64,000 bases of DNA from Phycisphaeraceae bacterium (GCA_029260635.1 JAJDCW010000038.1:745-64744); one strand, 5' to 3'. Shown: positions 3,098-32,380, counted from the stretch's first letter. Translations and numbers: made by a program. Notes: a model not told the origin generated them from the sequence alone.

Positions 3098-3243
3098 CGG
3101 CGTTCCTGAGAGCCGGTGATTGACCGATACATGTGGCAGCGTGCGGGTGGGAACGTGAAACTATTATTATAGTGGAAATAGTCGTATATTTCCGATAAAT
3201 CATTCGTGTCGAATCCTCCAAACGATACTTGAAAAAACCTGCT

Positions 3244-6026: not shown

Positions 6027-6041
6027 AGCGTATGCACGGGC

Positions 6042-7430
6042 ATGGAAAGACGGGTGGCGGGCCACGTCAATGGAATCATGTTTATGAAAGACTTGCTGCG
6101 GGTGGCGTATCGTGCCCTGCTTCGGGATGACCGGGGGCTGGTCCTGCTTGTATTTATCCTTTACACAAGGATCTCGGCACAACTCAGCGCGTATCACGGC
6201 ATCAACCGGGTGATGACCCTGGTGATGGGTGTGCTTGCTTTGGCGATTGTTACGCGCTGGTTGATCGATGGGGAGAGGACTCGGTACTGGGTTAGGCCGG
6301 CGCTGTGGATCGGGGTGTACATCACGATCTGCATGGCATCGATCCGTGGAGCGGAGGAGCCCGATCGCGCCTGGGCGGGGATTGAATTTCTTTTTAAGAG
6401 CACCCTGCTCGTGATGGTCCTGGTGACGCTGGTTCATTCCGCTGAGAATCTTCGGCGGGTGGTGTGGGCGGTGATCTTTGCGGGCATCGCGATGGGCTCG
6501 ATCTGCACGGTTCAGAGCCTGCTGGGCTTATCTGAAAACCACCTTGGTGGGTTTGCCGTCACACAGTACAGCCATATCGTGGGAAAACTGCACGCGTTTC
6601 GAGCGGGGGGAACTATCAATGATCCAAATTACTTCGCGCAGGTGATGGTAGTGGTCTTCCCGCTGGCGATAGAGCGGCTGTGGGCGGCAAGGCAGAGGCT
6701 CCATCTGATTTTGCCGGCGTGGGCGCTGTTTGTCAGCCTGTACACCGTCGTGCTGACGTATTCCCGGGCAGGTGTGTTGGCGATCTTTGTGATGGTGGTC
6801 CTGCTGATGCCGATGCTGGTCCGCCGCCGACCCCGACCGATCAACCTGGCGGTGATGGGCGTGGTATTGTTAGCACTGGTGCCTATACTGCCCGAGGGCT
6901 ATGTCAGCCGGATGACCGGACTCCATTATGTGATGCGGGACGACACTACCAAGTCCGACGAGGCCAAGACGACTTCGCAGAAACTGCTTGAGGAGCCCAG
7001 CTTCCGTGGTCGACTCAGCGAAAACATCGTCAGCCTTCAGATGTTCCGTGACCACCCGCTGCTTGGGGTGGGCTTGAATAACTACCAGGTGAATTACCAG
7101 CGGTATTCACAGCCGCTGGGTCTGGACCCGCGGACGGAAAGGCGCTCGGCACACAACCTGTACCTGGAATCGTTTGCCGAGACGGGGCTGCTGGGCGGTG
7201 TGGTATTCTGCAGCATGCTCTGCGTGCTCGTCTACGGGGCCAGGCGGACCAGGCTAGAACTCAAGCGACGCGGAGATGTTGAACAGGCGGAATTGGTTTC
7301 GGCGGTCACGATCGGGGCGATCGGTTTCTTTGTGGCTGCGGTATTCCTGCACGCATCCTTTGCTTATCACATGTGGTTCCTGATCGGCCTGGGCTTTGCA
7401 ATGCCGCGGGTGGCCGAGGCGACAGAATGA
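6042..7430 (+). CDS. O-antigen ligase/polymerase family membrane protein (Wzy-like)
   Basis: Polytopic membrane protein with the Wzy_C-type motif RSAHNLYLESFAETGLLGG. Confidence 0.75.
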   Translation: MERRVAGHVNGIMFMKDLLRVAYRALLRDDRGLVLLVFILYTRISAQLSAYHGINRVMTLVMGVLALAIVTRWLIDGERTRYWVRPALWIGVYITICMASIRGAEEPDRAWAGIEFLFKSTLLVMVLVTLVHSAENLRRVVWAVIFAGIAMGSICTVQSLLGLSENHLGGFAVTQYSHIVGKLHAFRAGGTINDPNYFAQVMVVVFPLAIERLWAARQRLHLILPAWALFVSLYTVVLTYSRAGVLAIFVMVVLLMPMLVRRRPRPINLAVMGVVLLALVPILPEGYVSRMTGLHYVMRDDTTKSDEAKTTSQKLLEEPSFRGRLSENIVSLQMFRDHPLLGVGLNNYQVNYQRYSQPLGLDPRTERRSAHNLYLESFAETGLLGGVVFCSMLCVLVYGARRTRLELKRRGDVEQAELVSAVTIGAIGFFVAAVFLHASFAYHMWFLIGLGFAMPRVAEATE

Positions 7431-8878
7431 GCCTGAGGCGAGCGACCGTTATCGGTGGGGTGTGGAGCTACGGCACGTTCGCGGTCGGCAAGGTTCTGAT
7501 CTTCCTGAGCACGGTTGTGTTGGCCCGCCTGCTGGTCCCCGCCGACTTCGGCTTGCTGGCGTTGGGGCTGGTTACGATCAACTACCTGGACCGGGTAAGC
7601 GGGATGGGGGTCGGGGCGGCGCTGATCTACCGCCAGGAGTCGCCACGGCGCAGCGCGGGCGTTGCCTTGACGCTGGCCGTCCTGATCGACGCGGCGCTGA
7701 TGTTGGCGGTGATCCTAGCTGCGCCCTGGATCGCGGCCGCGTTTGAGAACCCGGCCATCACGTCGATCGTGCGTGTGCTGGCGGTCGGCTTCTTTGTCGC
7801 GAACCTTAAGAATATCCCCGAGTCTCTGATCCGTAAGGACCTGGCGTTTCATAAGCGCGTCGTCCCGGAGCTTGGCAAGAGTTTTATCAAGGGCGGCGTG
7901 GCGATCCTGATGGCGTGGTGGGGCTGGGGCGTATGGAGCCTGGTCTGGGGGCAGGTGGCTGGGGGCGCGGCTTCGATGGTGCTGTACTGGGCGCTCTGCC
8001 GAAGCAGGCCCCGGTTTGCGTATGACCGTGAGATCGCCGGTTCGATCCTTGCGTATGGCGCGCCGATTGTGATGCTGGCCCTGCTGGGCACCGTCTGCAA
8101 CAGCCTGGATTACATCTTCATCGGCCTGCGGATGGACGCGGATCAGGCGGGGTACTACGCGATGGCGTTTCGGATGCCGGAGCTGGCGATTCTTAGCGTC
8201 GGGTATTCGATGAGCCACGTGTTATTCCCCGCCTATGCAAAAATCCAACACGCCCGGGAACAGATCCGTGGTGGGTATCTGATGACGCTTCGGTACCTGA
8301 CCATGCTCACGGCACCGTTAAGCGTGGGCCTTTATCTGGTAAGCCCAGAATTCGTGACGGTTTTTTATTCGCAGCGTTGGGAACCTTCGATTACGGTGAT
8401 GCAGATGCTGTCACTGTACGCGTTGGTCTTGTCGCTGTCCGGCAACGAGGGAGATGTTTACAAGGCGGTCGGTCGGCTGGATGTTCTGTATAAGCTGATG
8501 CTGGTGCAGGTGGTTTTGATGGGGCCGGTGTTGTGGTATGCGGCGGGGCACGGGATCTACGCGGTGTCGGTCGGACTGGTTGCTATGGGGGGGCTGCTAT
8601 TAGTCTTGCGTCTTGCGGTCGTCGGCCGCTTCCTGGGTATTAAGATGCGGGATCTATATAAAGCGCTTGGCCCGGCGGTGATCGGAACCTTAGTTATGTT
8701 CATTGGGACGTGGGCCGTCAGGTGGGGCTTGGCCGATTACGGCCCGGTGATGAAGCTGGCGGTTTCAGTGGTGGCCGGTGGGTTCCTGTATGTGGCGGCG
8801 CTGCGGGTGCTATATCCCGGCCTGGTGAAGCAGGCGGTCTCGATCGCCGGCCTGTCCAGGAAGGCGGCGAAGCCATGA
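7427..8878 (+). CDS. polysaccharide flippase (Wzx/MOP superfamily)
   Basis: About 12-14 TM helices in a typical lipopolysaccharide biosynthesis/Wzx arrangement. The start MSLRRATVIGG forms an ATGA overlap with the upstream stop. Confidence 0.75.
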   Translation: MSLRRATVIGGVWSYGTFAVGKVLIFLSTVVLARLLVPADFGLLALGLVTINYLDRVSGMGVGAALIYRQESPRRSAGVALTLAVLIDAALMLAVILAAPWIAAAFENPAITSIVRVLAVGFFVANLKNIPESLIRKDLAFHKRVVPELGKSFIKGGVAILMAWWGWGVWSLVWGQVAGGAASMVLYWALCRSRPRFAYDREIAGSILAYGAPIVMLALLGTVCNSLDYIFIGLRMDADQAGYYAMAFRMPELAILSVGYSMSHVLFPAYAKIQHAREQIRGGYLMTLRYLTMLTAPLSVGLYLVSPEFVTVFYSQRWEPSITVMQMLSLYALVLSLSGNEGDVYKAVGRLDVLYKLMLVQVVLMGPVLWYAAGHGIYAVSVGLVAMGGLLLVLRLAVVGRFLGIKMRDLYKALGPAVIGTLVMFIGTWAVRWGLADYGPVMKLAVSVVAGGFLYVAALRVLYPGLVKQAVSIAGLSRKAAKP

Positions 8879-10071
8879 CGGCGATACTATTTTGGGCCAG
8901 CGTGTTTGCGGTCTTTTATGTGTATGCCGGGTATCCGATGATGTTGACGGCGCTGGCGCGGGTGCGCAAGCCGATCGATTATGCGAGCCAACCGCCCTAC
9001 CGTCCTACCGTCACCTTGATAATCGCCGCGTATAACGAGCAGGCGGTGATCGGTGGCAAACTGGATAACACCCTTGCGAGCGGATACCCGGAAGAACGTC
9101 TACAAATCATCGTCGCGGCGGACGGGTCGGATGACCAGACCGTTCCGATCGTTCAAGGGTATGCGGACCGGGGTGTGGCGTTGAGCTATTCGCCTGAACG
9201 GCTCGGCAAATCAGCCGCGATCAACCGCGCGATGAGTATGGCTAAGGGTGAAGTCATTATCTTCTCGGATGCAAATAATCATTACGAGCACCAGACCCTG
9301 ACGCGGCTGGTACAGCCTTTTACCGACCCCGGGGTGGGCGCGGTCAGCGGCGCGAAGGTGATCCGGTCAGAGGACGGCCAACTCGGCGAGGCGGAGGGGG
9401 CTTACTGGAAATATGAATCGTTTATCAAGCGCCAGGAAACCAGGCTGGGGTCGTGTACCGCGGTGGCGGGTGAGATACTGGCGGTGCGCCGCGGTCTGGT
9501 GGCACCGATCCCGGACCGGGTGATTAACGATGACTTCTATCTGGCGATGCACGTGCTGCGCCGGGGATTCCGGATCGTGTATGAGCCCGGGGCGAGGTCG
9601 GTGGAGCGGGGATCGCTGACGGAGCGCGACGAGGCGATGCGCAGGGCGCGGATCGTGGCGGGCCGTTACCAGGCGATGCGGATGTCGCCGAGGTGCCTCC
9701 CGTGGTGGAGGCCTGTAGTTGTCTGGCAGGTGCTGTCACATAAATTTGCCAGGCCCCTGGTGCCGATCTTTATGATCGGGGCGCTGGTCGCCAACCTCGT
9801 TGCGGTGGCGGCACCTCCGCGAACGGGCGATGATGGGTTCTGGCGATTGGTGGAGCCTTACAACTGGATCGCGTTGGGTTTGCAGGGGCTGTTTTACATG
9901 ACCGCCCTGCTGGGTACATTTGTGAAAGGGCGAGGCGTGTTTGCAAGGATTGTATACATCCCGAGCTTTCTTGTGAGGAGCAACCTTGCGGCGTTGATCG
10001 GGTTGTTCCGCTTCGTGTCGGGTCGGCAGACACCGATCTGGCAACGGGTCGATCGGCAGGAGGAGGGGTGA
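8875..10071 (+). CDS. glycosyltransferase family 2 with C-terminal TM helices (synthase-like)
   Basis: Motifs IIAAYNEQAVI, VAADGSDDQT, IFSDANN and RRARIVAGRYQ. ATGA overlap with the flippase stop. Confidence 0.85.
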   Translation: MTAILFWASVFAVFYVYAGYPMMLTALARVRKPIDYASQPPYRPTVTLIIAAYNEQAVIGGKLDNTLASGYPEERLQIIVAADGSDDQTVPIVQGYADRGVALSYSPERLGKSAAINRAMSMAKGEVIIFSDANNHYEHQTLTRLVQPFTDPGVGAVSGAKVIRSEDGQLGEAEGAYWKYESFIKRQETRLGSCTAVAGEILAVRRGLVAPIPDRVINDDFYLAMHVLRRGFRIVYEPGARSVERGSLTERDEAMRRARIVAGRYQAMRMSPRCLPWWRPVVVWQVLSHKFARPLVPIFMIGALVANLVAVAAPPRTGDDGFWRLVEPYNWIALGLQGLFYMTALLGTFVKGRGVFARIVYIPSFLVRSNLAALIGLFRFVSGRQTPIWQRVDRQEEG

Positions 10072-11234
10072 TGTCGGCCGATCGTACGCGGGTGATGTAT
10101 ATGATCGATGCTCTGGGCCATGGTGGCGCGGAGCGCAATCTGTTCGGGTTTCTCAAGCATCTGGATACTCAGCGTTATGAGCCGAGGGTGTGTGCGCTGT
10201 CGGTGAAACAAGGCAACGTGGTCGCGGAGGATATCCGGGCGCTGGGGGTTGAGGTGGACCTGCTAGAGGTGGGCCGGTTGCTGGACCCAAGAGGAGGCAA
10301 GCGGTTGCGGGGCTACCTGAATGAACATCGGCCAGCGGTCCTGCACTCGCACCTGGATTACGCCGCCATGCTTGGCGGCCGGTCGTGCCGGGCGCTGGGT
10401 ATCCCGCACGTGACCACGCTGCACACGATGGATGGCTTTGCATGTCATACACGGGCGTACTGGCGGCAGCGCTTGCTGTACCGCTCGCTACAACAGTCAT
10501 GCAGCCGGGTGATTGCGGTCTCGGAGTCTGTCCGTACTCATCATCTGCAACGGTCGGGCTTGGATGCGGGGAAAGTCATAACCATCCATAACGGTATTGA
10601 ATTACAACGCTTCGGCCCTGTAACACGGGAGCGGCGCGATGCCGTGCGTGCGTCGTTTGGCGTCCCACCCGATGCCCCGCTGATCGTAACGGTCGCGGTG
10701 TTGCGTCCCGCCAAGGGTATTCAGCACCTAATTGACGCGGTGCCAGCGATTTGTAATACGCAACACGAGACCCGCGTGCTTATCATCGGTACCGGTTCAC
10801 ATGAGTCGTCTTTGAAAGATCAGGCGGCGGCGCTGGGCGTGGCCGAGCGTGTGATCTTCGCGGGACACCGCGAAGACGTGCCCGCCTTGCTCGGGGCGGG
10901 CGACATCTTCGTCTTGCCAACCCTGCGAGACGCGTTGCCGACGGTTGTGATCGAGGCGATGGCGGCGGGCACGCCCGTGGTGGCAAGCGGTGTCGATGGT
11001 TTGATGGAGATGATTGATCACGGGGCAACAGGCCTGTTGGTGCCACCCGCCGATGCGTCTGAACTGGCCAGCGCGTGCTTGAAGCTGTTGAATCAATCGG
11101 CGTTGTCTGCTTCAATTACACGGGCCGCGGGCATTGCGGTGGAGCAGCGGTTCGGGATCGGCGTGCATGTAAAACGTGTGACTGAGCTTTATGAGGAAGT
11201 TATCACAAAGGCCGCGGGGGCAAATAGCCCATGA
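10071..11234 (+). CDS. glycosyltransferase family 4
   Basis: Motif LPTVVIEAMAAGTPVVASGVDGLMEMIDHGATGLLVPP. The ATG shares one base with the upstream TGA. Confidence 0.85.
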   Translation: MSADRTRVMYMIDALGHGGAERNLFGFLKHLDTQRYEPRVCALSVKQGNVVAEDIRALGVEVDLLEVGRLLDPRGGKRLRGYLNEHRPAVLHSHLDYAAMLGGRSCRALGIPHVTTLHTMDGFACHTRAYWRQRLLYRSLQQSCSRVIAVSESVRTHHLQRSGLDAGKVITIHNGIELQRFGPVTRERRDAVRASFGVPPDAPLIVTVAVLRPAKGIQHLIDAVPAICNTQHETRVLIIGTGSHESSLKDQAAALGVAERVIFAGHREDVPALLGAGDIFVLPTLRDALPTVVIEAMAAGTPVVASGVDGLMEMIDHGATGLLVPPADASELASACLKLLNQSALSASITRAAGIAVEQRFGIGVHVKRVTELYEEVITKAAGANSP

Positions 11235-12469
11235 AAATCTTTGTTGTCGAACCAGTCGCGCAGGGCGGGCGGATACATTACGCGTATCAGCTCTGTAAGG
11301 CGCTCGCCGAACACGGCGCGGAGGTGGTGCTTGTCACGGCTGATGAGTACGAATTGGACGGGTTGCCACACAACTTCCGAGTCGATAAGTGTCTTAGGCT
11401 GTGGAACGCGTTCGATCCCAAATCGATGCGGCCACCGAACGGAAAGACCGCAAAGGCCTGGCGAAGAATCACCCGGTCTGTCAGGCGGCTGACCCGCGCG
11501 TTCCGCATGATGCGTCAGTACAGGGTCTTGAATCGCTACCTAATCGATCAGAAGCCCGACGTGGTTCAGTTCGGCATCATCCACTACCCCATCACGGCCC
11601 GTTTCCTGGCCAGGCTCCGTCGCCGGGGCATGATCCTGTCGCAGGTCATGCACGAGTACGAGCTGCGTGAACGGGCGGGGTCGCGGATCGCTTCACTGAT
11701 AACCCAATTGCAGGGGAAGACATACCATCACCTCGACATCATCTTCTTCCACGGCGAAGACCCGCGCCAGAGATTTCTTTCTATGTTCCCCTACCCCAAA
11801 GATCAAACACATCTGATTGAGCACGGCAACGTAGCGCTGTTCCTCCCCACATCAAAAACAGGCCAAGCGGTATTCGATGTGGATCGTTATTACCAACTCG
11901 AAGCGAACGATCCTGTCATATTATTCTTTGGCATCCTGCAGCCCAGCAAGGGCCTGCCCGATCTGATCGAGGCGTTTGCGGAAGTCAGTCAGCAATCTCC
12001 GCGTGCAAAGCTCCTCATCGTCGGCTACCCCTCGAAGCACATCAATATCAGTAGCATCCAACGGGCTATCTCCGGGTCTGGCGCCGCGGATCGGATTATC
12101 CTGGACACGCGTTACGTGCCGATTGAACAGGTGGGCGATCTGGTCAGGCGGGCCTGTGTCGTGGTCTTCCCGTATCTAAGCGGGACACAGAGCGGGGCTT
12201 TGCAGGTGGCCTACGCGTTTGGCCGACCCGTGGTGGCGACGACGGTGGGTACGATGCCACAGGATGTGGAGGATGGACGCAGCGGCCTGCTCGTGCCGCC
12301 GGGCAACCCGGCACGTCTGGCCGAAGCGATCCATGAGATTGTGTCGGACCCACAACGGGCCGAACAGATGGGCGCTCACGCCGAGCACCTGTCGGATACA
12401 CGCTTCGCCTGGGGGCCGATCGGGGCTGGTATTTTAGATGTTTACCAAAAGAGGGTCCGTGAGAAGTAA
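11231..12469 (+). CDS. glycosyltransferase family 4
   Basis: Motif GALQVAYAFGRPVVATTVGTMPQDVEDGRSGLLVPPGN. ATGA overlap with the upstream stop. Confidence 0.8.
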   Translation: MKIFVVEPVAQGGRIHYAYQLCKALAEHGAEVVLVTADEYELDGLPHNFRVDKCLRLWNAFDPKSMRPPNGKTAKAWRRITRSVRRLTRAFRMMRQYRVLNRYLIDQKPDVVQFGIIHYPITARFLARLRRRGMILSQVMHEYELRERAGSRIASLITQLQGKTYHHLDIIFFHGEDPRQRFLSMFPYPKDQTHLIEHGNVALFLPTSKTGQAVFDVDRYYQLEANDPVILFFGILQPSKGLPDLIEAFAEVSQQSPRAKLLIVGYPSKHINISSIQRAISGSGAADRIILDTRYVPIEQVGDLVRRACVVVFPYLSGTQSGALQVAYAFGRPVVATTVGTMPQDVEDGRSGLLVPPGNPARLAEAIHEIVSDPQRAEQMGAHAEHLSDTRFAWGPIGAGILDVYQKRVREK

Positions 12470-12597: not shown

Positions 12598-13026
12598 GTG
12601 TTCGTAATCAGCATTGATCTATGCGTCGGCTGCGGCGGCCACCGCGGATGCCTGGGCGGCGACGACGTGGCCCGTGTACTGGATCGGGTCGCGCTGCAGC
12701 GAGGTGCATTGCCGGAGAAGATCCGGGTTGACAACGGGACCGAGTTTACGAGCAAGCGGTTGGATCAGTGGGCGTATCTGCGTAAGGTGCGTCTGAACTT
12801 CAGCCGTCCCGGAAAGCCTTCGTATAACGGCATAATCGAGGCGTTCAACGGCCGAGTGCGAGCCGAGTGCTTGAATGAGAACTGGTTCTTGAGCCTGGAG
12901 GACGCGAAGGAGAAAGTTGAATCCTGGCGTTGTCATTATAATATGGATCGTACCCACAGCGCCTTGGGCAACCTTGCCCCCGAAGAGTTCGCTGCTTCAT
13001 CCGGCCAGGCTAGCCTGGCCGGATGA
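12598..13026 (+). mobile_element. truncated IS3-family transposase OrfB (C-terminal part of the rve integrase core only)
   Basis: Sequence VARVLDRVALQRGALPEKIRVDNGTEFTSKRLDQWAY...FSRPGKPSYNGIIEAFNGRVRAECLN...RTHSALGNLAPEEF. There is no N-terminal catalytic half and no OrfA directly upstream. Confidence 0.75.
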
Positions 13027-13415: not shown

Positions 13416-14399
13416 TTACTTCTTGTGTGCCACTAACATGCCGACGGTGTGGGGTGGTACTTGCAGGTTGGTAAGCGACGTCTGTATAAACCCTTCGGCC
13501 TTCAACAAGGCTACCAGCGCCTCGGGAGTATACACATGCCCCTGTTCTGTCCTGAGTGCTAAGCCAAGGGCATAAAGCGTGCGGTTGATATCGCCTTGTG
13601 GATCGCCCGGGAAGATATCAAGTATGACGATCCTGCCTTTGTTCTTGAGCGCGGCGTAAACCTTCTTAAATAGTGATTGGTTGCTGGCGGGTGTTTCCAG
13701 GTGGGTGACATTGCCCATGATGGTCAGGTCATAGGTATCCGCGCCGAGATCAACCTCGTGGTAGTTGCCCGGGGAGGTGCTTAGTTGGTTTTCGATCCCC
13801 AATTGCTGTGCTGTATTCACCGCAATCGGGAGGACCGCCGGCCAATCAACGGCGGTCACGGTGCTAGTGTCATCATGGCTTGCAAGTGTAAGGCTCCAGA
13901 TCGCAGAACCCGCCCCGATATCGAGGATGTTCAGGTTATTGTTGTTTCCATCGGACCGTAGATGTATGGCCGCGGCTCCAGCCGCCGGGGCCAGCATCCA
14001 GCCTAAAGCGGCGGCCTGTTTCTGGTAATGCGTTTCACTCTGGGTCACCGAATCCATGGCTGTGATCGGCTTCCCCGTTTTGAGGTAACTAGGGAGGTGT
14101 CCCCAGTAGGGGTCACCTATCTCGCGGTATCCGCCACTAATAAGCATGGCAGCCAACGGAGTCAGTGTGAAAACCCGGTCACGATGTTGCACAAGCCCGA
14201 GGGTGCCGAGTACTTCCAGCAGCAGGTTTGTGGGCTCTTCCAGCGTCCCGCATGATGCCGCGATGTCTGACGCAGATTTAGGCTGTTTTGCTATCGCATC
14301 GAGTACGCCGTGCCGGATCGCCTCACGGTATACATGCGATGCGCCATTCATATTCATGAGCCGGAAGTAGTCAGCTCGGGTCTTTGTCTGGTCATTCAT
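13416..14399 (-). CDS. class I SAM-dependent O-methyltransferase (small-molecule OMT type with N-terminal dimerisation/wHTH domain)
   Basis: SAM motif ILDIGAGSAIWS. The overall 327-aa layout is typical of the COMT/CrtF-like family. Confidence 0.7.
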   Translation of the reverse strand: MNDQTKTRADYFRLMNMNGASHVYREAIRHGVLDAIAKQPKSASDIAASCGTLEEPTNLLLEVLGTLGLVQHRDRVFTLTPLAAMLISGGYREIGDPYWGHLPSYLKTGKPITAMDSVTQSETHYQKQAAALGWMLAPAAGAAAIHLRSDGNNNNLNILDIGAGSAIWSLTLASHDDTSTVTAVDWPAVLPIAVNTAQQLGIENQLSTSPGNYHEVDLGADTYDLTIMGNVTHLETPASNQSLFKKVYAALKNKGRIVILDIFPGDPQGDINRTLYALGLALRTEQGHVYTPEALVALLKAEGFIQTSLTNLQVPPHTVGMLVAHKK

Positions 14400-16186
14400 G
14401 ATTGGTTGCCAATTGTGGCGACGGATACGGTGAATATCCCGTCCTCGTCGATCTCCATGGTGGTTTTCATGAACCGGGCTTCACGGACCAGTTCATCGAG
14501 TTCCTCCTGTGTCCGGCGTCGCATGATCCAAGGATTACCCTCCCGATTGGGCAATACCCTGGCGATCATCTCGACCTCCGGGTGCCAGGGCTGGCCGTCG
14601 TATATGAAAACGCCCCCGTCCTTCAGTGCCTTGGCGATGCCACGAAGTGACCGCTGAATCCGTTCGTTATCCGGGTATAGCTCATACAGCCCGCATGCGA
14701 TCACGATACTGGGGGCGGGGCTCATGGCTGCCAGAGATTCTTCGTCGAATGCATCGCCGTGTTCGAACGTGACATTGGCAAGCCCTTTTTCCTTTACGAG
14801 CTTCCGTCCGGCTTCGAGATTGGGCTCCTGATAGTCTCGTAGGACCGCGGTGATATCGGGGTCTGCCAGTTTGGTAAGTGTGTCGAGGACATAACGCCCC
14901 TGGCCGGCAGCTATGTCTACGATATGAACAGGCCTCCCCGATTCCCTCTGCTGCTTGATTACATCGTAGAGCAGCCCTTCGATATTGATTTTCCGTTGGC
15001 GGACCGCGCGCCAGCCGACGTTGTTCAGATACATCCGGTCGAACACTTTGCCGATCAGCAGATCGCCCCGGGCCTTGTTCTGGTAGATGTAGTCGAGTGT
15101 GCGTCCGGAATCGAACCCGGAATGCCAGCCCAGCCGGATGCCACGGCCAAGGCGCCCCAGCGTATTCATGGCAAGCCGCTGACCGCTATACCGGCACCAT
15201 TTTGGTGACAACTTTGTAAGGGGTTGAGAAAGCCTGTCGTACTCGTCTTTCGTAAAGCCTTGCTTGTCCGCATCCAGCAAGGGGGTGCGGGTCTGGTTGT
15301 TGTCAAAAGACGTGTTAATGAACTCCCGGATCTCATCTAGTACCAGCACACGGTCTTTCTCGTGGAGGATGTCGTGGTACATCCCGTCAAACACGCGCAT
15401 CTTCTTGACAGACGAGCCAAGGCCGTCGAAGAACGCTTGTTGTGCGCCGACCTTGACAACCCAATCCGAACCACCCGCGAGCAGGAGCGTGGGGACACGG
15501 ATAGCGCCGGCGTCAGCTATCAAGCGGGTTGCTGTGTCGTTCAGGTCAAGGAGTATGTTGACGGCGATCGCCTTGGCGATCAGGGGGTCATTATCGTATC
15601 GTGACGCCTGAACGGGATCGTGCGTCAGCATCTTCGCCTTGACGTAACTCTTGATAAACGACTTGCGTTTGCCTTTGATCTTCTGAAGAAGTCTTAGACC
15701 GGGAATTGCAAGTGGGATATAGAGCTTGACGCGCAGGGCCGGAGTGAGCAAGACCAATGACCTGATCTGAGGGGCGTAGTCATGTACCCAGGCGGCAACC
15801 GTTACGGCGCCGACGCTGTGGGCCACCACCACGGTGTCTTGTATTGCTATGCCGTGTTCCGCCAGGACGTGATTTACAAAGCAATCGATATCTTTAATGA
15901 CACAGCCAAGGCTCGGCGCATATCCCCGTTCGCCCGGCGATCGGCCGTGTCCGCGTGCGTCCCATGCGAATATGGCCGTGTCTTGCAGACCGAGTTCTTC
16001 CACCACATCGCTGAAACGGCCGGAATGTTCGTGTCCGCGGTGAAATAGGAACACGGCTTTGCGGGCGGGCTGGTCGGGCAGCCATGCACGGTAAAACAGC
16101 TCGGTCCCGTCCCACGTGGCAAAGGTGTGTTCGGTCGAGCTGAAGGTGTCGGCCGATTGTGATAATGATTTGTCCAGCAGCGTCAT
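14396..16186 (-). CDS. bifunctional alpha/beta hydrolase (lysophospholipase/monoglyceride-lipase-like) :: class I SAM-dependent methyltransferase fusion
   Basis: The N-terminal half has HRGHEHSGR and the nucleophile elbow AHSVGA, with acid/His regions. The C-terminal half has the SAM motif VDIAAGQGRY...VIACGLYE. The stop overlaps the OMT start by 4 nt. Confidence 0.8.
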   Translation of the reverse strand: MTLLDKSLSQSADTFSSTEHTFATWDGTELFYRAWLPDQPARKAVFLFHRGHEHSGRFSDVVEELGLQDTAIFAWDARGHGRSPGERGYAPSLGCVIKDIDCFVNHVLAEHGIAIQDTVVVAHSVGAVTVAAWVHDYAPQIRSLVLLTPALRVKLYIPLAIPGLRLLQKIKGKRKSFIKSYVKAKMLTHDPVQASRYDNDPLIAKAIAVNILLDLNDTATRLIADAGAIRVPTLLLAGGSDWVVKVGAQQAFFDGLGSSVKKMRVFDGMYHDILHEKDRVLVLDEIREFINTSFDNNQTRTPLLDADKQGFTKDEYDRLSQPLTKLSPKWCRYSGQRLAMNTLGRLGRGIRLGWHSGFDSGRTLDYIYQNKARGDLLIGKVFDRMYLNNVGWRAVRQRKINIEGLLYDVIKQQRESGRPVHIVDIAAGQGRYVLDTLTKLADPDITAVLRDYQEPNLEAGRKLVKEKGLANVTFEHGDAFDEESLAAMSPAPSIVIACGLYELYPDNERIQRSLRGIAKALKDGGVFIYDGQPWHPEVEMIARVLPNREGNPWIMRRRTQEELDELVREARFMKTTMEIDEDGIFTVSVATIGNQS

Positions 16187-16944
16187 ACATGATCCTCCGG
16201 AGCGGCTATAGATGTGGCTTGAGTTGAATCGACTGATGCGAGAGCCGAAACGCTATTCTGTAGGTCATTACATATATCAACGACCGCGGATTTTCCTCGT
16301 TTCAGGTGCGAGTAGTGGCGCGGCTTGCCGATCATTATGCGGACACGCTTGGGGCTGGGGATGAACCGGCCCTTTGGCAGCGCCTCAAACGCGCCTTCGA
16401 TCCGGCATGGTATGACGGGGACATCATTGCCCGCCAGCAGGTAGCCGATGCCCGGTTTGAAATCGCTCATTTCTCCGGTGGGCGAACGCGTGCCTTCTGG
16501 GAAGATCAACAATATCGTGTTTGGCCTGTCGAGTAGTCGTGTACACAGGCTCAGGCTCTGCCGGATGTTCGTGTGGCGATCGAAGGGCAATGCGTTGACC
16601 ATTACCGCCGAGAAGGCTACCCGGGGGACGCTGACAAAGAAAAAATCCTTGGCCGCGGCCGGGAAAACTCTGTGTAGTGATTGAATAGGTAGCCCCGAAA
16701 GGATGCTGATCGTATCCAGGTGGCTGGTGTGGTTGGCGATCAGGACGTATGAACCATTATTGGGAAGGTTCTCACGGCCGGTTATCGTTAAGCGGTGATA
16801 GACGCGCATCCAAACACGGATCAATCCAGCCGCGATGAGTCGGAGGCTGTATACAAAAAGGTCTGGCTCACGGGGGACCCGCTGTAATCGTTCAATAACT
16901 GATTGATCGATATCTTCGGCTGTCTCGTATTTCCAGTCTTGCAT
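16183..16944 (-). CDS. lysophospholipid (1-acyl-sn-glycerol-3-phosphate) acyltransferase family protein
   Basis: HX4D motif NHTSHLD and motif FPEGTRS. The ATG at 16944 is preferred over the GTG at 16992. The stop overlaps the downstream start by 4 nt. Confidence 0.8.
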   Translation of the reverse strand: MQDWKYETAEDIDQSVIERLQRVPREPDLFVYSLRLIAAGLIRVWMRVYHRLTITGRENLPNNGSYVLIANHTSHLDTISILSGLPIQSLHRVFPAAAKDFFFVSVPRVAFSAVMVNALPFDRHTNIRQSLSLCTRLLDRPNTILLIFPEGTRSPTGEMSDFKPGIGYLLAGNDVPVIPCRIEGAFEALPKGRFIPSPKRVRIMIGKPRHYSHLKRGKSAVVDICNDLQNSVSALASVDSTQATSIAAPEDHV

Positions 16945-17075
16945 CGAGGCAGACCTTTGCGTATAGCCAACGACCCGACGGCGTGCAATCACAGGGGCCT
17001 ACGCCCCGGCTCCGCTAGATTATACAAGTTCCAGTTCACATCCGGTACGCATCAAAGGCTCCGGTAGTTCTGGAA

Positions 17076-18023
17076 TCAGTAAATGCCGTGGTAGTAGTTG
17101 CTCAGATGGAAAAACAGGGGCGCGACATAGATCAGGCTATCGATCCGATCCAGGACCCCGCCGTGACCCCGGATGGTCTGGCCCATGTCCTTGATGCCGA
17201 TATCGCGTTTGATCACGCTGAGGGACAGGTCCCCCAGTTGCCCGCCGACACCGACGACGAGGCCTATCAATAGGAGTTCAAGGGTGCCGAAGTGTGGGAA
17301 AGAAAAGTGTAGCACCCAAGGCAATACCATCGATACGGCTACCGCGCCTATGGCTCCCTCCCATGTCTTGTTCGGGCTGATGCTGCTACGGAGCGGGTGT
17401 CGGCCGAAGCACTTACCAAATACATACGCGGACACATCATTTATCTGGACGGCGAAGAGAAGATAGAGGAGGTACCCGTAGGCCCAGGAAGAGTTGGCTA
17501 GATACGTCGCGTGCCCGAACATCCAACCGATATACATGAAGCCGACGATCGCCAGGGCGATCACCTGGAGCTGACCAGCCGCACGGTTGCGCACGATGGG
17601 CACGGCTACGATCGCCGCGATGACGTAAACCGGCAGTGCCGCGTACAGGCCGTACCACCCGGGCACACCTAGAAAAGGATCGACCACAAAGGTTGTTACG
17701 CCACAGGCGATGAGCCCGAGGTAGACCACACAGGTCATCGTCCAGTCTCGATAAAGCCCGGTCGCACGGGCGTACTCCTTGAATCCGGCGAGTGCTACCA
17801 GGGTAAGCCCGAGGATCACAGCGATCCGGCCGAGGAAGACACCCCCCATGATTAAAGGGATCATGACAAGCCAGCCCCGGTATGATGCCCAAGCGTGCCC
17901 GACATCTTTCTTCAAGACCCACCGCAAAAAGGCGATTGATACGCCCGCGATCAGGAGCATCGTGGTGATCAGCACGAAATAAATCTTGAACACACCACTA
18001 TCCATCGCCGCGCTAGGAGACAT
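17076..18023 (-). CDS. cdsA: phosphatidate cytidylyltransferase (CDP-diacylglycerol synthase)
   Basis: CTP_transf_1 signature SVIKRDIGIKDMGQTIRGHGGVLDRIDSL. Polytopic membrane protein. Confidence 0.85.
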   Translation of the reverse strand: MSPSAAMDSGVFKIYFVLITTMLLIAGVSIAFLRWVLKKDVGHAWASYRGWLVMIPLIMGGVFLGRIAVILGLTLVALAGFKEYARATGLYRDWTMTCVVYLGLIACGVTTFVVDPFLGVPGWYGLYAALPVYVIAAIVAVPIVRNRAAGQLQVIALAIVGFMYIGWMFGHATYLANSSWAYGYLLYLLFAVQINDVSAYVFGKCFGRHPLRSSISPNKTWEGAIGAVAVSMVLPWVLHFSFPHFGTLELLLIGLVVGVGGQLGDLSLSVIKRDIGIKDMGQTIRGHGGVLDRIDSLIYVAPLFFHLSNYYHGIY

Positions 18024-18718
18024 TACACGCTCTCCGAAGGGCCGTCAGCACGGTCGTGGCCGGTATCATCTGTATCAAGAGCTCGCATAATGCGCACGAG
18101 CCTGACGACCATGGTCTGAATGCAGCCGGCGATAATCAATATTAGTGTCCAGTCCAGTACCGTGAGGCCACCGTACACGATCTGTTCATCCCCCCACCAC
18201 AGCAAGGCCAGTGTGGTCCAGGCTCCGATGTGTAGAGCCACCATCCGCCAGGGCTTAGACATCACCCCGCTGAACTCCCGCTGCACGCGTACCGCTTGCC
18301 CCAATATCCCGATGTAGGCGACCAGCAGGGCAAGGATCGTGACCCAGTAGGCGATCAACGGTTGGCAAAGGCCGCTGTGCGCCACGCCGACGAATATTAA
18401 AACATCGGAGATGCGGTCGGGCAGTTCGTTGATGACCTCACCGCGTCGGGAGGCTTTGCCTGATCCCAGGGCAACCATCCCATCGAGCATGTTCAACCAC
18501 AGGCGGAGGTAGCAGAACGCGACGGCGATAATTAATAGTGCGGGCGTGTCCTGGGATTGCCAGAAACAGACCCCCGCCGCCGCAGAGGACACGATGGAAA
18601 GATAAGACACCGTGTCGGGCGAGATGTTTCGTTTCACGCAGAACGCGACGGCACCGTTGGCCGTCTGCCGGAAGATGGCCGCGATGCTTCGTCGTGAGTC
18701 GGGTTGATAATCTGCCAT
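18023..18718 (-). CDS. CDP-alcohol phosphatidyltransferase family protein
   Basis: Signature D-G-x2-A-x8-G-x3-D-x3-D read as LDGMVALGSGKASRRGEVINELPDRISDV. The start was trimmed to MADYQPD (18718) to remove overlap with the upstream gene. TAATG overlap with cdsA. Confidence 0.8.
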   Translation of the reverse strand: MADYQPDSRRSIAAIFRQTANGAVAFCVKRNISPDTVSYLSIVSSAAAGVCFWQSQDTPALLIIAVAFCYLRLWLNMLDGMVALGSGKASRRGEVINELPDRISDVLIFVGVAHSGLCQPLIAYWVTILALLVAYIGILGQAVRVQREFSGVMSKPWRMVALHIGAWTTLALLWWGDEQIVYGGLTVLDWTLILIIAGCIQTMVVRLVRIMRALDTDDTGHDRADGPSESV

Positions 18719-18764
18719 GTGCTCGATCTCGATGTCGCGGACATAATATGGGGGGATGGTGATA

Positions 18765-19136
18765 CTACGACTCGATCCGCGCGTTCCCGATGCCCATGCA
18801 ATACATCCCGGCCAATAGCAAGACCATGCCAAAGATGTGGATAAGCCTAATAGGTTGAGCGTAGATAAGCCACCCAAGGACCGCCGCCCATATAAAGGTC
18901 GAGGCATAGATCGGATAAAGCACCGTAACGGTCCCGCCCTTCTTGAAGGCGTAGGTGAAGAAGAACATCACCACGATATAACAGATCATGCCGGCCAAGA
19001 CCCAGGGGGACCAGAGAAACGACAGGGCGCTCTCCCCCATGCGATCGGTCCCGATCTTGAATAAGTACTGTCCCCCTGCGCCAAGCAGCGCCGCGATCAA
19101 CACACAGACTATCGATACCAGCGGAGTATTTAGCAT
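18765..19136 (-). CDS. small 4-TM EamA/SMR-like (DMT superfamily) membrane protein
   Basis: A 124-aa protein with four hydrophobic helices, the same size class as ArnE/ArnF-like lipid-linked substrate flippase subunits. The start was trimmed to MLNTPLVSIV. Confidence 0.6.
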   Translation of the reverse strand: MLNTPLVSIVCVLIAALLGAGGQYLFKIGTDRMGESALSFLWSPWVLAGMICYIVVMFFFTYAFKKGGTVTVLYPIYASTFIWAAVLGWLIYAQPIRLIHIFGMVLLLAGMYCMGIGNARIES

Positions 19137-19212
19137 AGGGACATCCTTGGTACTGGGAGGCATCGGCCGCAGTGGTTTGTTCTTGTTTGAGGCACACCGT
19201 TTCGTCCTTCTC

Positions 19213-19845
19213 CTACGCCGGGGTGCTCGCGTGCGATTTTTTCCGGGCAAGGAACCGCCTGGCCAGCCAGCCTATGACCAGGCCTGCTATCAGCGAGGCC
19301 GCAACGAACTTGATGATGGTGTTGCGGACGTATGTATCGATCATTGAATTGCTGAACGGGTTGAGCGAGCTGTGTACGCGGGCGATCTTCCAACCGCCGT
19401 CGGACTTTCGGAACACGACAGTCCATTTTGAGGTAAATCGGTGCTCATCCCCCCCACCGGTGACCAGGGTGTTCTCAGAGTTTCCCTTGGCGATGGCGAT
19501 GTCGCCGTAAATGAGGCTGCGGTCCGGCAACAACGTTACCGAGTAGGTCCCCCCTTTGAGCATGGCCTCTCGGGTGGATTGCCACTGAGCCTTGAAGGCG
19601 GTGAAGTCGGTGAACTCACGATCGGTATACGACACCACCGAGAAGGGGTCATTCAGGTACGGCTCAATCAGTTCGAGGTTGTTCGTGTTGATGGCTTCTT
19701 CAAAAAGCATCTTGAACGCCCGGAGCGCATCATGATCAGCCTCATCCCCCTCTGCCCCGGCCGCATATAGTTGCCCGTACGGGGTACAGATCAGCATGAA
19801 GGCGAGTGTGATTAAGACTCGGAACAATAGATGGGTGGGTTTCAT
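19213..19845 (-). CDS. SnoaL-like/DUF4440 (NTF2-fold) protein with signal peptide and C-terminal TM anchor
   Basis: Sequence TSKWTVVFRKSDGGWKIARVHSS is the typical NTF2-like C-terminus. The N-terminus is hydrophobic (MKPTHLLFRVLITLAFMLIC) and there is a C-terminal helix. Confidence 0.55.
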   Translation of the reverse strand: MKPTHLLFRVLITLAFMLICTPYGQLYAAGAEGDEADHDALRAFKMLFEEAINTNNLELIEPYLNDPFSVVSYTDREFTDFTAFKAQWQSTREAMLKGGTYSVTLLPDRSLIYGDIAIAKGNSENTLVTGGGDEHRFTSKWTVVFRKSDGGWKIARVHSSLNPFSNSMIDTYVRNTIIKFVAASLIAGLVIGWLARRFLARKKSHASTPA

Positions 19846-19882: not shown

Positions 19883-20857
19883 TCACGCCCGCTCTTCCTC
19901 GCGATCAGTTGCGAGGCCCGGCCGGGGTGAGAGTGCCGAAACCTGTTCATGCAATTCTCGAGTCATATTGATGTCTAGTGACTTAAGTGCGGGTTCGAGT
20001 TGATCGAGGTTGCGGGCGCCGATAATCGGAGCGGTGATGCCCGGGTGCGCCGCGACCCAGGCGACTGCTAATGACACGACGTGACAGCCGTATTGTTCGG
20101 CGATCTTTGCCAATGACTTAGCCACATCGAAATTGGAATGATTGGCGTACCGCTTGCGGTAGGCTTCGCTTTCTTTGAGTCGGCCATCGACCTCAAGGTT
20201 CTTCTTCCCGTACTTGCCCGAGAGTATCCCGCCGGCTAATGGGCTGTAGGAGATCACGCCGACGCCTTCGGATTCTGACATCGGAAGCAACTCGACCTCG
20301 GCCTGACGCTTCAGCAGGTTGTACATCGGCTGGATGCAGCGGAACGGCGACCAGCCATTGGCATGAGCGATACCGTTTGCCTTGGCGATCTGCCACGCCG
20401 CGAAGTTGCTCGCCGCGGGGTAGCGGACCTTCCCCTGCCTGACTAGATCGTCCAAGGCACGCATCACATCATCGAGCGGGGGTTGCTCATGGAACCGGTG
20501 CAGAAAATAGATATCGATGTGGTCGGTACCCAGCCGGCGGAGGCTCTGCTCGACGTGGTGCATGATATGGGTGCGTGAGTAACCCGGGCCGGTGGCGTCG
20601 ATGCCCGCACCCATGCCGAGTTTCGTGGTGATGACGAGTGTGTCTCGCTCGTCTTTGATGAGTCGCCCCAGGATACGCTCGGACTCGCCTCCCACATACA
20701 CATTGGCACAATCGAAGAAGTTGATCCCGATGTCTCGGCAGCGGTTGTAGATGGCCCCAGCGGTATCAAAATCACAACCCTCGCCGCCGAAGGTCATGGT
20801 GCCGAAGCAGAGTTCAGAGACCTTGAGTCCGGTATTACCCAGGGGCACGTATTTCAT
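19883..20857 (-). CDS. aldo/keto reductase
   Basis: MKYVPLGNTGLKVSELCFGTMTFG, DCANVY, IDIYFLHR and GVISYSPLAGG are canonical AKR motifs. Confidence 0.9.
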   Translation of the reverse strand: MKYVPLGNTGLKVSELCFGTMTFGGEGCDFDTAGAIYNRCRDIGINFFDCANVYVGGESERILGRLIKDERDTLVITTKLGMGAGIDATGPGYSRTHIMHHVEQSLRRLGTDHIDIYFLHRFHEQPPLDDVMRALDDLVRQGKVRYPAASNFAAWQIAKANGIAHANGWSPFRCIQPMYNLLKRQAEVELLPMSESEGVGVISYSPLAGGILSGKYGKKNLEVDGRLKESEAYRKRYANHSNFDVAKSLAKIAEQYGCHVVSLAVAWVAAHPGITAPIIGARNLDQLEPALKSLDINMTRELHEQVSALSPRPGLATDREEERA

Positions 20858-20955: not shown

Positions 20956-21789
20956 TCAAACAGTCTTTGGCCTGGAGAGGGTTGCGAGTGCGCCAAGCGT
21001 AAGAAGTGAAAGGCTCAGCGGTTCGGGGACCGTGCTCGCAGCGCCGGCGGCAGGTGGGCTGCCCGAGTTCCAGTTGCCAAGGACCCAATTAAGATCATCG
21101 ATGCCGACAAAGCGGTCGCCGTTCGTATCGCCCGCGGGGTAGTCCGGGAATGCGGCGGTGGCGTTCCAATTGCTCAGCACAGTGTTCAGGTCGTCGATGC
21201 CGACGAAGCCGTCGGAGCCGATGTCACCCGCCATCGTGGTGATGTTGAATTGGATGTTCTGTTTTGTGAAGGGTTGAGGCAAAGACGCGGGGTCGGTCAG
21301 CGCGGTGTTGGGTCCTAAGTCAAAATTCCCGACGCCGACAGGCGCGTTGGTGTTGATGGTGAACCTGTAGAACTGAAGGTCGCCTGATTTGTTCGCGACC
21401 TGGTCGGCCTGGTTGACGAGTCGGCCGGACACGAGCCCCGGGCCCGAGATCGTCTGGAAGACCATGGGGTCGCCGGAGAAGAAGTCGCGCGACGGGTCGG
21501 GTACCCCGTAGGCGACACCGAGCCCGCCGGGGATGAGGGTGGCGTAGGGCGGTAGGAAGAAGTCGTGCTGAGTGCCCCAGGTCAGGTCGCCATTAAGCCC
21601 GGTGTTGTCGGCGTAGACCCAGGCGGTGTATACGGTCGAGCCATCGGCGACCATGATGTTGTTCTGGGCGTAGGTGCCCATGACTGCGTTGGCATCGGCG
21701 GATTTAAAAGTCAGCAGAACCAAGCCGATTGCCAGGATTGTCCCGGCCTGTTTGACGAGGTATCGAGAATAGAAATCTGGGCGAAACAT
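20956..21789 (-). CDS. secreted PEP-CTERM-anchored protein with two dockerin-like repeats
   Basis: C-terminus VPEPLSLSLLTLGALATLSRPKTV (PEP-CTERM). Repeats GDIGSDGFVGIDDLNTVLSNWN and GDTNGDRFVGIDDLNWVLGNWN. The start was trimmed to MFRPDFYSRYL. Confidence 0.75.
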   Translation of the reverse strand: MFRPDFYSRYLVKQAGTILAIGLVLLTFKSADANAVMGTYAQNNIMVADGSTVYTAWVYADNTGLNGDLTWGTQHDFFLPPYATLIPGGLGVAYGVPDPSRDFFSGDPMVFQTISGPGLVSGRLVNQADQVANKSGDLQFYRFTINTNAPVGVGNFDLGPNTALTDPASLPQPFTKQNIQFNITTMAGDIGSDGFVGIDDLNTVLSNWNATAAFPDYPAGDTNGDRFVGIDDLNWVLGNWNSGSPPAAGAASTVPEPLSLSLLTLGALATLSRPKTV

Positions 21790-21985
21790 CTTTATCTCCC
21801 TCCGAGATATGTTGCCTGCGAGGAATGTAACCGAAGCATATGCCGTGGAATGGTCCCCACCAACGGCATCGAAACCATTACGTATTATCAGGAACGGGGC
21901 CGTGCTTGGCAAGGAAATTCCGCGATCTTGTAACCTATGGAATCCCCCCTGCCGCCCCCCTACCACCTCTTTACTGGGTTTACGT

Positions 21986-22023
21986 AAAAAAAACACGCCC
22001 GGGGTCGGTGACCCTGGCCGTGT
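21986..22023 (-). terminator. rho-independent terminator (minus strand): ACACGGCCAGGG-UCACCGA-CCCCGGGCGUGU followed by U8
   Basis: A 12-position stem with 10 pairs (21993-22004/22012-22023) is followed immediately on the minus strand by eight U (plus-strand A run 21986-21993). Confidence 0.75.
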
Positions 22024-22580: not shown

Positions 22581-23066
22581 TCATTCCGAATTGTTTCGCC
22601 GACGCCTCATGGCCAATCGTGGGTTCATGAGGATGTCGGGCTGATCTTTGAGCTTGCTTTCCAGATGTTCGTACCAGGCTATTCGGTCTCTGACTTCCAT
22701 GTGATCCTTCACGCCGATCAGGACGACTTCCGATCCCAGCCCCGCCCGTGTCAGCAGGTCGCTTGGGAGCGTGACTCTGCCGTGCTTATCGAGCTCAACC
22801 GATCTGGATAAGGCGTAGAACACGCGCTCGTATTCGAGCAGTTCGTCGGCATCCATCTCGGAGCGGTCTAACTCATCCGCCCGCTGTTCGTACCCTTTCT
22901 CCGTATACAGGCACAGCGTCCCGTCCTTGCCGAGCGTGACATACATGAAGATCGCGTCGTCGTCACCGGTTCCGGTTGAACGCTTGATCCGCGTTCGGAC
23001 TTCGGCCGGGATGGCCAAACGGTTCTTCTTGTCGATCGAATGGTCATAGGTACCAGTAAAAACCAA
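22581..23066 (-). CDS. mraZ: transcriptional regulator MraZ
   Basis: MFTGTYDHSIDKKNRLAIPAEVR and the second half-domain VELDKHGRVTLPSDL show the duplicated SpoVT/AbrB-like MraZ repeats. Confidence 0.9.
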   Translation of the reverse strand: MVFTGTYDHSIDKKNRLAIPAEVRTRIKRSTGTGDDDAIFMYVTLGKDGTLCLYTEKGYEQRADELDRSEMDADELLEYERVFYALSRSVELDKHGRVTLPSDLLTRAGLGSEVVLIGVKDHMEVRDRIAWYEHLESKLKDQPDILMNPRLAMRRRRNNSE

Positions 23067-32371: not shown

Positions 32372-32380
32372 ATGTATGAT

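Follow-up and report, generated by a model that had tools for sequence, protein, structure and literature searches.

The seven-gene operon and its predicted products

The window analysed here is a 64,000-nucleotide stretch of a Phycisphaeraceae bacterium (GCA_029260635.1 JAJDCW010000038.1:745-64744). At positions 13416-19845 it carries seven co-oriented minus-strand genes, which a preliminary description had read as a self-contained lipid operon dependent on CDP-diacylglycerol (CDP-DAG) and which we regard as a probable member of the Escherichia coli ynbABC(D) type of gene cassette. All seven open reading frames (ORFs) were found, and the three overlapping junctions reported for them are borne out on the sequence: at 18023 a TAATG, with one base common to the stop of the transferase and the start of CdsA, and at 16183-16186 (PlsC/YnbC) and 14396-14399 (YnbC/OMT) ATGA overlaps. 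The first gene encodes a SnoaL-like protein (likely gene 19213-19845, ORF to 19950, start MKPTH). It is followed by a small protein of 123 aa with three or four predicted transmembrane segments (likely gene 18765-19136, ORF to 19250), a CDP-alcohol transferase (likely gene 18023-18718, ORF to 18907, start MADYQP), a CdsA-like protein (17076-18023, its start overlapping the transferase stop by 1 nt), a PlsC-like protein (16183-16992, with an alternative ATG start at 16944), a hydrolase::methyltransferase fusion (14396-16186, with an ATGA overlap at each end) and, as the last gene, an O-methyltransferase (OMT; 13416-14399). Comparison with homologues suggests that the three upstream-most ORFs are over-extended at the 5' end and that their likely starts are 19845, 19136 and 18718, of which the latter two leave intergenic gaps of 76 and 46 nt. 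Pfam and NCBIfam searches uphold the domain calls made earlier for the block, with the transferase and EamA/ArnE matches falling below cutoff.

The fusion protein is 48% identical over 577 aa to YnbC of E. coli K-12, of which it is by alignment a full-length orthologue, and it is called YnbC below. Its domains in Pfam are Hydrolase_4 (1e-65) and Methyltransf_20 (PF12147, 1e-120). The catalytic triad of the hydrolase (S124 within HSVGA, D241 and H271) is conserved to at least 90% in 52 homologues, and in the PDB this domain matches monoacylglycerol lipases at 1e-23 to 1e-18. The methyltransferase (MT) domain has its S-adenosylmethionine (SAM) motif I at residues 423-430 and belongs to a small family, with 596 representatives at E<=1e-10 among 1.84 billion. 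In a profile search of the PDB, no solved structure came close to this domain, 9sls at 4e-5 being the best match. Its AlphaFold2 model is confident (predicted local distance difference test, pLDDT, of 94), and a Foldseek search with it returned as the best match an uncharacterised Bordetella protein (3ocj, TM-score 0.64), followed by generic small-molecule methyltransferases. A kinship with cyclopropane-fatty-acid synthases was considered and rejected, as the Foldseek matches revealed no special likeness to these enzymes and likewise no clue to the substrate.

The CDP-alcohol transferase is 31% identical to E. coli YnbA and scores 20.8 bits against the Pfam model CDP-OH_P_transf (PF01066), for which the gathering score is 22. 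Its best NCBIfam model is the archaetidylinositol-phosphate (AIP) synthase (71.2 vs a cutoff of 180), ahead of the phosphatidylinositol-phosphate (PIP) synthase (36.6 vs 170) and BT1523-type (32.3 vs 350) models. The motif of the protein, N76-x2-D79-G-x2-A-L-x8-G-x3-N97-x3-D101-x3-D105, departs from the PF01066 signature D1xxD2GxxAR...GxxxD3xxxD4, reading NxxDGxxAL...GxxxNxxxD instead. In a gap-free alignment of this signature, D1 and D3 are Asn in 49/49 cassette-linked transferases, drawn from loci L001-L080 and the window and including E. coli YnbA (3622-4227 of L081), and the Arg of 'AR' is additionally absent from the subgroup of the window's transferase, which comprises sequences from Acidobacteriota and the Planctomycetes-Verrucomicrobia-Chlamydiae (PVC) superphylum. 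We found no mention of the invariant Asn at D1 and D3 of YnbA-type transferases in the literature searched.

A YnbA family profile (A2) was built from 26 cassette-linked transferases and searched against the PDB. It matches mycobacterial PgsA1 (6h53) over its full length at 3e-19, PIP synthases (PIPS; 6wm5, 5d91) at 1e-15 to 1e-13, AF2299 at 7e-11 and choline/ethanolamine phosphotransferases at 1e-8, so that homology to solved family members spans the whole six-transmembrane core; the profile is far weaker on PgsA (E=0.037) and PssA (E=0.22). In PgsA1, D68 and D89 coordinate the two Mg ions and D93 presumably acts as the catalytic base; a pocket of S132, R155, R195 and the R152 backbone holds the phosphate group of inositol phosphate (PMC6506517). 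The YnbA family has Asn at the counterparts of D68 and D89 and keeps the counterpart of D93, while its invariant K155, R158 and R206 align to PgsA1 R152, R155 and R195, respectively. Because the transferase is PIP-synthase-like and the acceptor-phosphate pocket residues are kept, the acceptor X is probably anionic, and most simply an alcohol phosphate. The head group had previously been called unpredictable; the range of candidates is thereby narrowed.

The CdsA-like protein matches CTP_transf_1 at 1e-54 (186.6 bits vs a cutoff of 24) and contains the C-terminal signature K-R-x4-K-D...HGG-x2-DR-x-D, present as SVIKRDIGIKDMGQTIRGHGGVLDRID. Against the housekeeping equivalog model PRK11624 it scores only 104.5, the cutoff being 385. 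Aligned end to end with a hidden Markov model (HMM) of 33 cassette-linked CdsAs, the window CdsA scores 188.7 bits vs 130.7 for E. coli CdsA. Both this protein and the transferase fall in the divergent PVC/Acidobacteriota subgroup. The PlsC-like protein matches the Pfam family Acyltransferase at 5e-22 (78.5 bits), with the motifs H88-x4-D93 (H88TSHLD) and F164PEGTR, and reaches only 49 against the cutoff of 102.95 for TIGR00530.

The OMT contains two Pfam domains, Methyltransf_2 (PF00891; 36.2 vs 22.3 bits) and Dimerisation (35.3 vs 25.6 bits), i.e., a winged-helix dimerisation domain followed by a class I methyltransferase, an architecture of the family-2 small-molecule type. Its SAM motif I, LDIGAGS, begins at residue 159, and H233 is invariant; the catalytic motifs are thus intact in PlsC, CdsA, YnbC and the OMT. 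The AlphaFold2 model of the OMT (pLDDT 92) aligns in Foldseek to Npun_R0239 (2r3s), MfnG, DsyB and RedM at TM-scores of 0.7-0.77, those for 2r3s, MfnG and RedM lying at 0.73-0.77. A substrate clue was sought in this fold search, which returned only generic family-2 OMTs. At E<=1e-10, 385 homologues of the protein were retrieved; those few of the top matches that come with a source name are labelled Pirellulaceae.

Two further proteins accompany the enzymes. The small protein stays below cutoff for both Pfam EamA (1.1e-4, 22.9 vs 28.2) and NCBIfam ArnE (1.2e-4, 22.3 vs 92), and a hydropathy scan gives three or four hydrophobic, transmembrane-like segments; as an EamA/ArnE/small multidrug resistance (SMR)-like protein, it is a candidate flippase or exporter. 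Homologues of it adjoin the OMT gene in loci L001-L003, in the Bacteriovorax loci L028 and L039 and in L086 (53% identity, 117 aa). The SnoaL-like protein matches DUF4440 (7.7e-9) and SnoaL_3 (1.6e-7) in Pfam, both of the NTF2-like fold, and has a signal-like hydrophobic segment at residues 6-24 and a C-terminal transmembrane segment at about residues 173-199. Its homologues immediately precede the cassette in L001, L002, the betaproteobacterial loci L017, L032 and L036, and L090 (50% identity); in the three betaproteobacterial cassettes, which carry YnbD, the gene precedes the transferase.

Conservation and modular make-up of the cassette

A scan of one genome per species identified 80 loci with a YnbC-type gene, in Planctomycetota, Verrucomicrobiota, Acidobacteriota, Alpha-, Beta- and Gammaproteobacteria, Campylobacterota and Bdellovibrionota. 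Neighbouring genes were counted from tblastn and ORF clustering, and the counts are lower bounds owing to contig ends and crude ORF calling. Under these conditions, a CDP-alcohol transferase accompanies YnbC in at least 48 of the 80 loci, a CdsA-family protein in at least 56 and a PlsC-like protein in at least 42. The co-occurrence of the fusion gene with the transferase across genomes, which the preliminary description had proposed as a check on its reading, is thus found. At least 55 of the 80 loci also encode a match of about 450 aa to E. coli YnbD, in which a PAP2_3 membrane domain is combined with a DSPc phosphatase domain.

The closest relatives of the block are in two complete Phycisphaeraceae chromosomes (L001 and L002), where the same seven genes occur in the same order at 61-77% identity, amid unrelated flanks that include a glycoside hydrolase and NAD-salvage genes. 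Since gene order is kept although the flanks differ, the seven-gene block behaves as a unit. With the core of transferase, CdsA, PlsC and YnbC also linked in most of the 80 loci, its arrangement is far beyond chance.

The E. coli operon ynbABCD (b1408-b1411) is the best-known relative. Its YnbC is orthologous to the fusion protein of the window, its transferase has the same motif N-x2-DG...N-x3-D-x3-D, and its CdsA paralogue, YnbB, directly follows the transferase with an overlapping stop and start, as in the window. The two differ in their remaining genes: E. coli has YnbD and no PlsC, OMT, EamA-like or SnoaL-like gene, and the window is the reverse. By homology, and with its CdsA taken as a probable YnbB-type paralogue, the window therefore has three of the four parts that define the ynbABCD family and lacks the fourth; no YnbD-like sequence turned up in the window when YnbD of E. 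coli and three similar proteins were used as tblastn queries. A similar relationship is seen with 'Cluster 25' of Pseudomonas protegens PBL3 and with the Burkholderia ambifaria plasmid NZ_CP066768.1, an example of the plasmid cassettes whose parts have generic names in RefSeq. Both have the same five-gene content apart from the last enzyme, the shared products being annotated as a CDP-alcohol phosphatidyltransferase, a bifunctional alpha/beta hydrolase/class I SAM-dependent methyltransferase, a lysophospholipid acyltransferase and a phosphatidate cytidylyltransferase: these cassettes carry a PAP2/dual-specificity phosphatase and a small hypothetical membrane protein, whereas the window has the OMT and the EamA-like protein.

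This exchange recurs. YnbD is absent from L001-L003, where the OMT follows YnbC, and the OMT also stands in the place of YnbD in the Bacteriovorax loci L028, L039 and L046 and in the acidobacterial contig L006. Viewed from the OMT, its homologues lie directly after YnbC in 5/5 places looked up (L084-L087 and L090), with the transferase upstream, usually a CdsA gene and sometimes PlsC. The metagenomic locus L090 is the most compact, consisting of a SnoaL-like gene, a gene for an 834-aa YnbA::YnbC fusion and the OMT gene, with cdsA and plsC absent nearby, so that its organism would need another source of CDP-DAG. From these contexts, the family is modular, with a core of YnbA and YnbC, usually YnbB and often PlsC. 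The finishing module is either YnbD, together with a small two-transmembrane protein, or the OMT, which a small EamA-like protein often accompanies; the anchored NTF2-like protein is an optional part. The recurrent variant in which an OMT replaces the phosphatase has apparently not been described.

Natural fusions connect the core proteins even more closely. P0135 (807 aa) and P0310 (834 aa; 7001-9505 of L090) are YnbA::YnbC fusion proteins, and in P0265 (400 aa) a PF12147 methyltransferase is joined to a PAP2 domain. The existence of these proteins supports a direct functional coupling of the joined activities at the membrane.

The cassette also appears to be mobile. YnbC cassettes are carried on 31 plasmid records, e.g., a conjugative IncFIA/IncFIC plasmid of E. 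coli from human faeces (L089, NZ_CP045714.1), as a result of which some E. coli strains would hold three CdsA-family genes, and the 19-kb B. ambifaria plasmid mentioned above (L088), which has the whole five-gene set beside the cellulose genes bcsB and bcsZ. The YnbC and CdsA of the window are 54-63% identical to homologues from Acidobacteriota and other phyla. So much similarity is unusual between phyla and points to lateral transfer.

Proposed pathway and competing explanations

The cross-phylum synteny, the carriage on plasmids, the YnbA::YnbC fusions and the coexistence of ynbABCD with an essential cdsA in E. coli lead us to favour, with reasonable though far from complete confidence, the interpretation that the block is an accessory operon for phospholipid biosynthesis, mobile by horizontal transfer and of the same type as ynbABC(D) of E. 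coli. The core of the preliminary description, a dedicated CDP-DAG lipid pathway that includes tailoring enzymes and perhaps a flippase, thus remains the best explanation; what it had missed is that the block belongs to a known family and is not a one-off.

As a plausible sequence of events, the PlsC-like enzyme would acylate lyso-phosphatidate to phosphatidate, which the YnbB-like CdsA paralogue would convert with CTP to CDP-DAG. The YnbA-type transferase would then place the phosphatidyl group on X, giving phosphatidyl-X(-P) at the cytoplasmic face of the membrane, and the soluble YnbC and the family-2 OMT would tailor this lipid by methylation, deacylation or re-acylation. In this scheme, the OMT would take the place of the PAP2/dual-specificity phosphatase YnbD, the finishing enzyme of most other cassettes. 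The small EamA-like protein may flip or export the product, and the periplasm-facing, membrane-anchored NTF2-like protein may bind it or hand it on. We infer the order of the reactions, the anionic nature of X, the methylation targets and the transport roles.

Among solved structures, the best full-length relatives of the YnbA family belong to the PgsA1/PIPS pathway and have corresponding phosphate-pocket residues (PMC6506517). The mycobacterial and actinobacterial PIP route, in which a phosphorylated lipid is made and then acted on by a phosphatase, parallels the YnbA and YnbD of the common cassette type, and an anionic X would fit YnbD as the next step there. The correspondence has limits: PIP synthases have Mg-ligand Asp where YnbA-type enzymes have Asn, the PIP and AIP models score far below cutoff, and, unlike the PIP route, the window variant has neither a phosphatase nor a linked inositol-phosphate synthase. 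No gene for the latter was found within the 64-kb window or among the recurrent neighbours of the cassette. A specific link from E. coli YnbD to phosphatidylglycerophosphate or PIP phosphatases was also sought in the PDB and dropped, the matches being generic dual-specificity phosphatases.

A more specific version of the accessory-operon reading, which we advance tentatively and consider rather improbable as a whole, is that the YnbA-type enzyme, with Asn at two metal-binding positions and its phosphate pocket kept, makes an undescribed anionic phosphatidyl-X-phosphate. In the variant of planctomycetes, Bacteriovorax and acidobacteria, the head group would be methyl-capped by the YnbC methyltransferase and the OMT instead of being dephosphorylated by YnbD, and the lipid would then be flipped and passed to the NTF2-like carrier. 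If true, this would add a methylated envelope lipid of a new class, and a new pathway logic that the cryptic ynb operon of E. coli shares.

Several observations weigh against an accessory phospholipid operon. No lipid product is on record for any member of the family in the literature searched; a search on YnbA, YnbC and YnbD, including PF12147, found nothing on their function or product, and the published work on the E. coli ynb genes covers only YnbB, linking it to the glycolipid MPIase and not to a phospholipid. Only two of the four canonical Asp residues are left in the transferase, and its subgroup has also lost the Arg of 'AR', because of which the enzyme could differ in chemistry or be non-catalytic. 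None of the loci examined has a head-group precursor gene linked to the cassette; the recurrent neighbours tried as candidates for this role proved to be only lineage-specific Lnt-like, P450, SDR and MFS genes. In pairwise BLAST, the window CdsA is non-discriminating, with 110 bits to YnbB vs 102 to E. coli CdsA. Moreover, co-transcription of the seven genes is suggested only by the overlaps and short gaps; a promoter and terminator scan of the region gave counts at chance level.

The same CdsA bears on the simplest of the competing explanations, namely that the block is the organism's only cdsA/plsC set, clustered by chance with unrelated genes. The proteins do share the superfamilies and motifs of housekeeping CdsA, PlsC and PgsA/PssA (CTP_transf_1, HX4D and the CDP-alcohol transferase fold), the motifs of the window CdsA are complete, by BLAST it is about as close to E. 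coli CdsA as to YnbB, and, again to the disadvantage of an accessory operon, its gene is the only cdsA in the 64-kb window, where pgsA and pssA were not seen elsewhere. Yet the proteins score below the equivalog cutoffs, the YnbB-type HMM prefers the window CdsA, the uppS/dxr/rseP context is absent, methyltransferases and a lipase are linked, and the block has stayed together across phyla, with relatives on plasmids. In E. coli K-12, an orthologous cassette coexists with the essential housekeeping cdsA, which lies in dxr-ispU-cdsA-rseP-bamA, with ynbB separate in ynbABCD, and L090 represents a relative of the cassette that is devoid of cdsA and plsC. Studies of ynbB agree in this respect: the gene is dispensable, and YnbB makes CDP-DAG in vitro but cannot replace cdsA (PMC6362211, PMC7018664); it is H-NS-silenced, and the ynbA promoter needs activation by BglJ-RcsB (PMC6362211, PMC3950696). 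We consequently give the housekeeping explanation very little credence. A remodelling or salvage function that makes no new head group fares slightly better and is still unlikely. Here the lipase would deacylate lipids and PlsC would re-acylate them with particular fatty acids, CdsA and the transferase would return phosphatidate to PG- or PI-type lipids (phosphatidylglycerol, phosphatidylinositol), and the methyltransferases would act on something else. The monoacylglycerol-lipase/lysophospholipase-like hydrolase and the linkage of PlsC in at least 42 loci fit such a function, and the P. protegens copy has been labelled a 'membrane phospholipid remodelling/biogenesis module' in a comparative-genomics paper (PMC13541209). 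What argues for a distinct product is the transferase's own motif, invariant and non-canonical in an enzyme family distant from PgsA and PssA, together with two strictly linked methyltransferases, one of which forms a single protein with the hydrolase and in some cases with the transferase as well.

The two remaining alternatives concern the nature of the product. Lipid pyrophosphates are the typical substrates of PAP2 enzymes such as YnbD, and this would suit a diacylglycerol-pyrophosphate-linked sugar primer of the MPIase type, for which a sugar-1-phosphate would be coupled to CDP-DAG by the CdsA paralogue, the YnbA-type enzyme or both, and the remaining genes would trim, methylate and flip the glycolipid. 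Retention of the acceptor-phosphate residues with loss of two acidic residues would suit a phosphate nucleophile, the small protein is ArnE-like, and a polysaccharide cluster is adjacent at 2261-12469. The sole experimental data on the family, which also provide the only published biochemical role within it, indicate that YnbB supports GlcNAc-PP-DAG/MPIase and can back up MPIase synthesis (PMC6362211, PMC7018664), the MPIase pathway thus using a YnbB-type CdsA paralogue as well (PMC6362211). However, an E. coli ynbB knockout barely alters MPIase, the MPIase work does not involve YnbA, YnbC or YnbD, and the conserved cassette has no glycosyltransferase in any locus. In the window, the cassette has no linked glycosyltransferases or evident MPIase-type glycan genes and no YnbD, and the polysaccharide cluster is on the other strand behind an insertion sequence (IS) fragment and is absent beside L001 and L002. 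On this evidence, an MPIase-type product seems to us a minor possibility, a little stronger than remodelling. A soluble glycerophospho-X, either an osmolyte or a signal, set free by the lipase domain and carried out of the cell by the small protein of drug/metabolite transporter (DMT)-like type, would account for the constant fusion of the lipase domain to a methyltransferase and for the small-molecule-type folds of both methyltransferases, and an EamA/SMR-like protein could export small molecules. It would be costly to build a diacyl lipid merely to strip it, the anchored NTF2-like protein and the YnbA::YnbC fusion locate the reactions at the membrane, and such a product is without precedent in the family; we judge it as improbable as the housekeeping case.

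The cassette belongs to a large family, with at least 6,529 YnbC protein clusters across many phyla, on plasmids and in E. coli K-12, and occurs in at least two interchangeable finishing versions, either with the phosphatase or with the OMT and the small transporter. These two versions, together with the non-canonical transferase site, offer handles on the acceptor, the role of the Asn residues and the methylated atom, and the E. coli homologue offers a genetic system for this branch of membrane-lipid chemistry.

Surroundings of the operon in the window

Upstream of the block lies an aldo/keto reductase gene (19883-20857, minus strand; Aldo_ket_red, 3e-73), whose stop is 37 nt upstream of the first gene. 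It may be co-transcribed with the block, yet it is not a conserved part of the cassette. The sigma-70-like sites near the block on its strand are all upstream of this gene, at a frequency no higher than expected by chance. An aldo/keto reductase gene is also found upstream of the cassette in E. coli (pdxI, 222-1082 of L081), at a distance of 2.5 kb and with ydbD between, and about 6 kb from the cassette in two Acinetobacter loci. The aldo/keto reductases near cassettes are 25-34% identical (25% between that of the window and E. coli PdxI), and L001 and L002 lack the gene, for which reasons we rejected this adjacency as a feature of the cassette and regard it as probably a coincidence. Just upstream of the reductase gene, at 20956-21996 (minus strand), a 346-aa protein with no Pfam match has, by eye, a PEP-CTERM-like end (VPEP...hydrophobic...RPK) and two dockerin-like GDxNGDxxVGIDDLN repeats.

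The downstream edge of the block is marked by the 3' fragment of an IS3-family transposase gene (12598-13026, plus strand; rve_3, 1.5e-23), which matches positions 257-368 of 369 of the NCBIfam model transpos_IS3 and bears out the IS debris reported beside the block. The reported lower GC content of the block fared less well: it is indeed lower (0.564 vs 0.582 for the window), but only marginally, by about 1.3 standard deviations, and 6.6% of equal-sized windows are as low. As this dip is not significant, GC and third-position GC (GC3) were dropped as signs of foreign origin. Beyond the fragment, the polysaccharide-synthesis cluster at 2261-12469 (plus strand) converges on the lipid operon. 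It encodes a sulfotransferase-like protein, a Bac_transf priming sugar transferase, three GT4 and one GT2 glycosyltransferases, a Wzy-type polymerase/ligase and a Polysacc_synt_3 flippase.

Farther upstream, genes of the division and cell wall (dcw) cluster occur in a non-canonical order, with mraZ alone at 22581-23066 (minus strand) and mraY, murF and murE at 36161-40465 (minus strand), 13 kb 'upstream'; a ParB gene, an MqnA-like menaquinone gene, an amidase gene and a terminase-like block lie between them. Phage-like genes are present at 29719-35572 (minus strand), encoding a Terminase_6C large-subunit-like protein, a ParB_N protein and an ABC/AAA ATPase, and at 54407-57716 (plus strand), encoding an SPP1-type portal and an SU10-type major capsid protein. 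The two sets may be prophage remnants or a gene-transfer-agent-like element.

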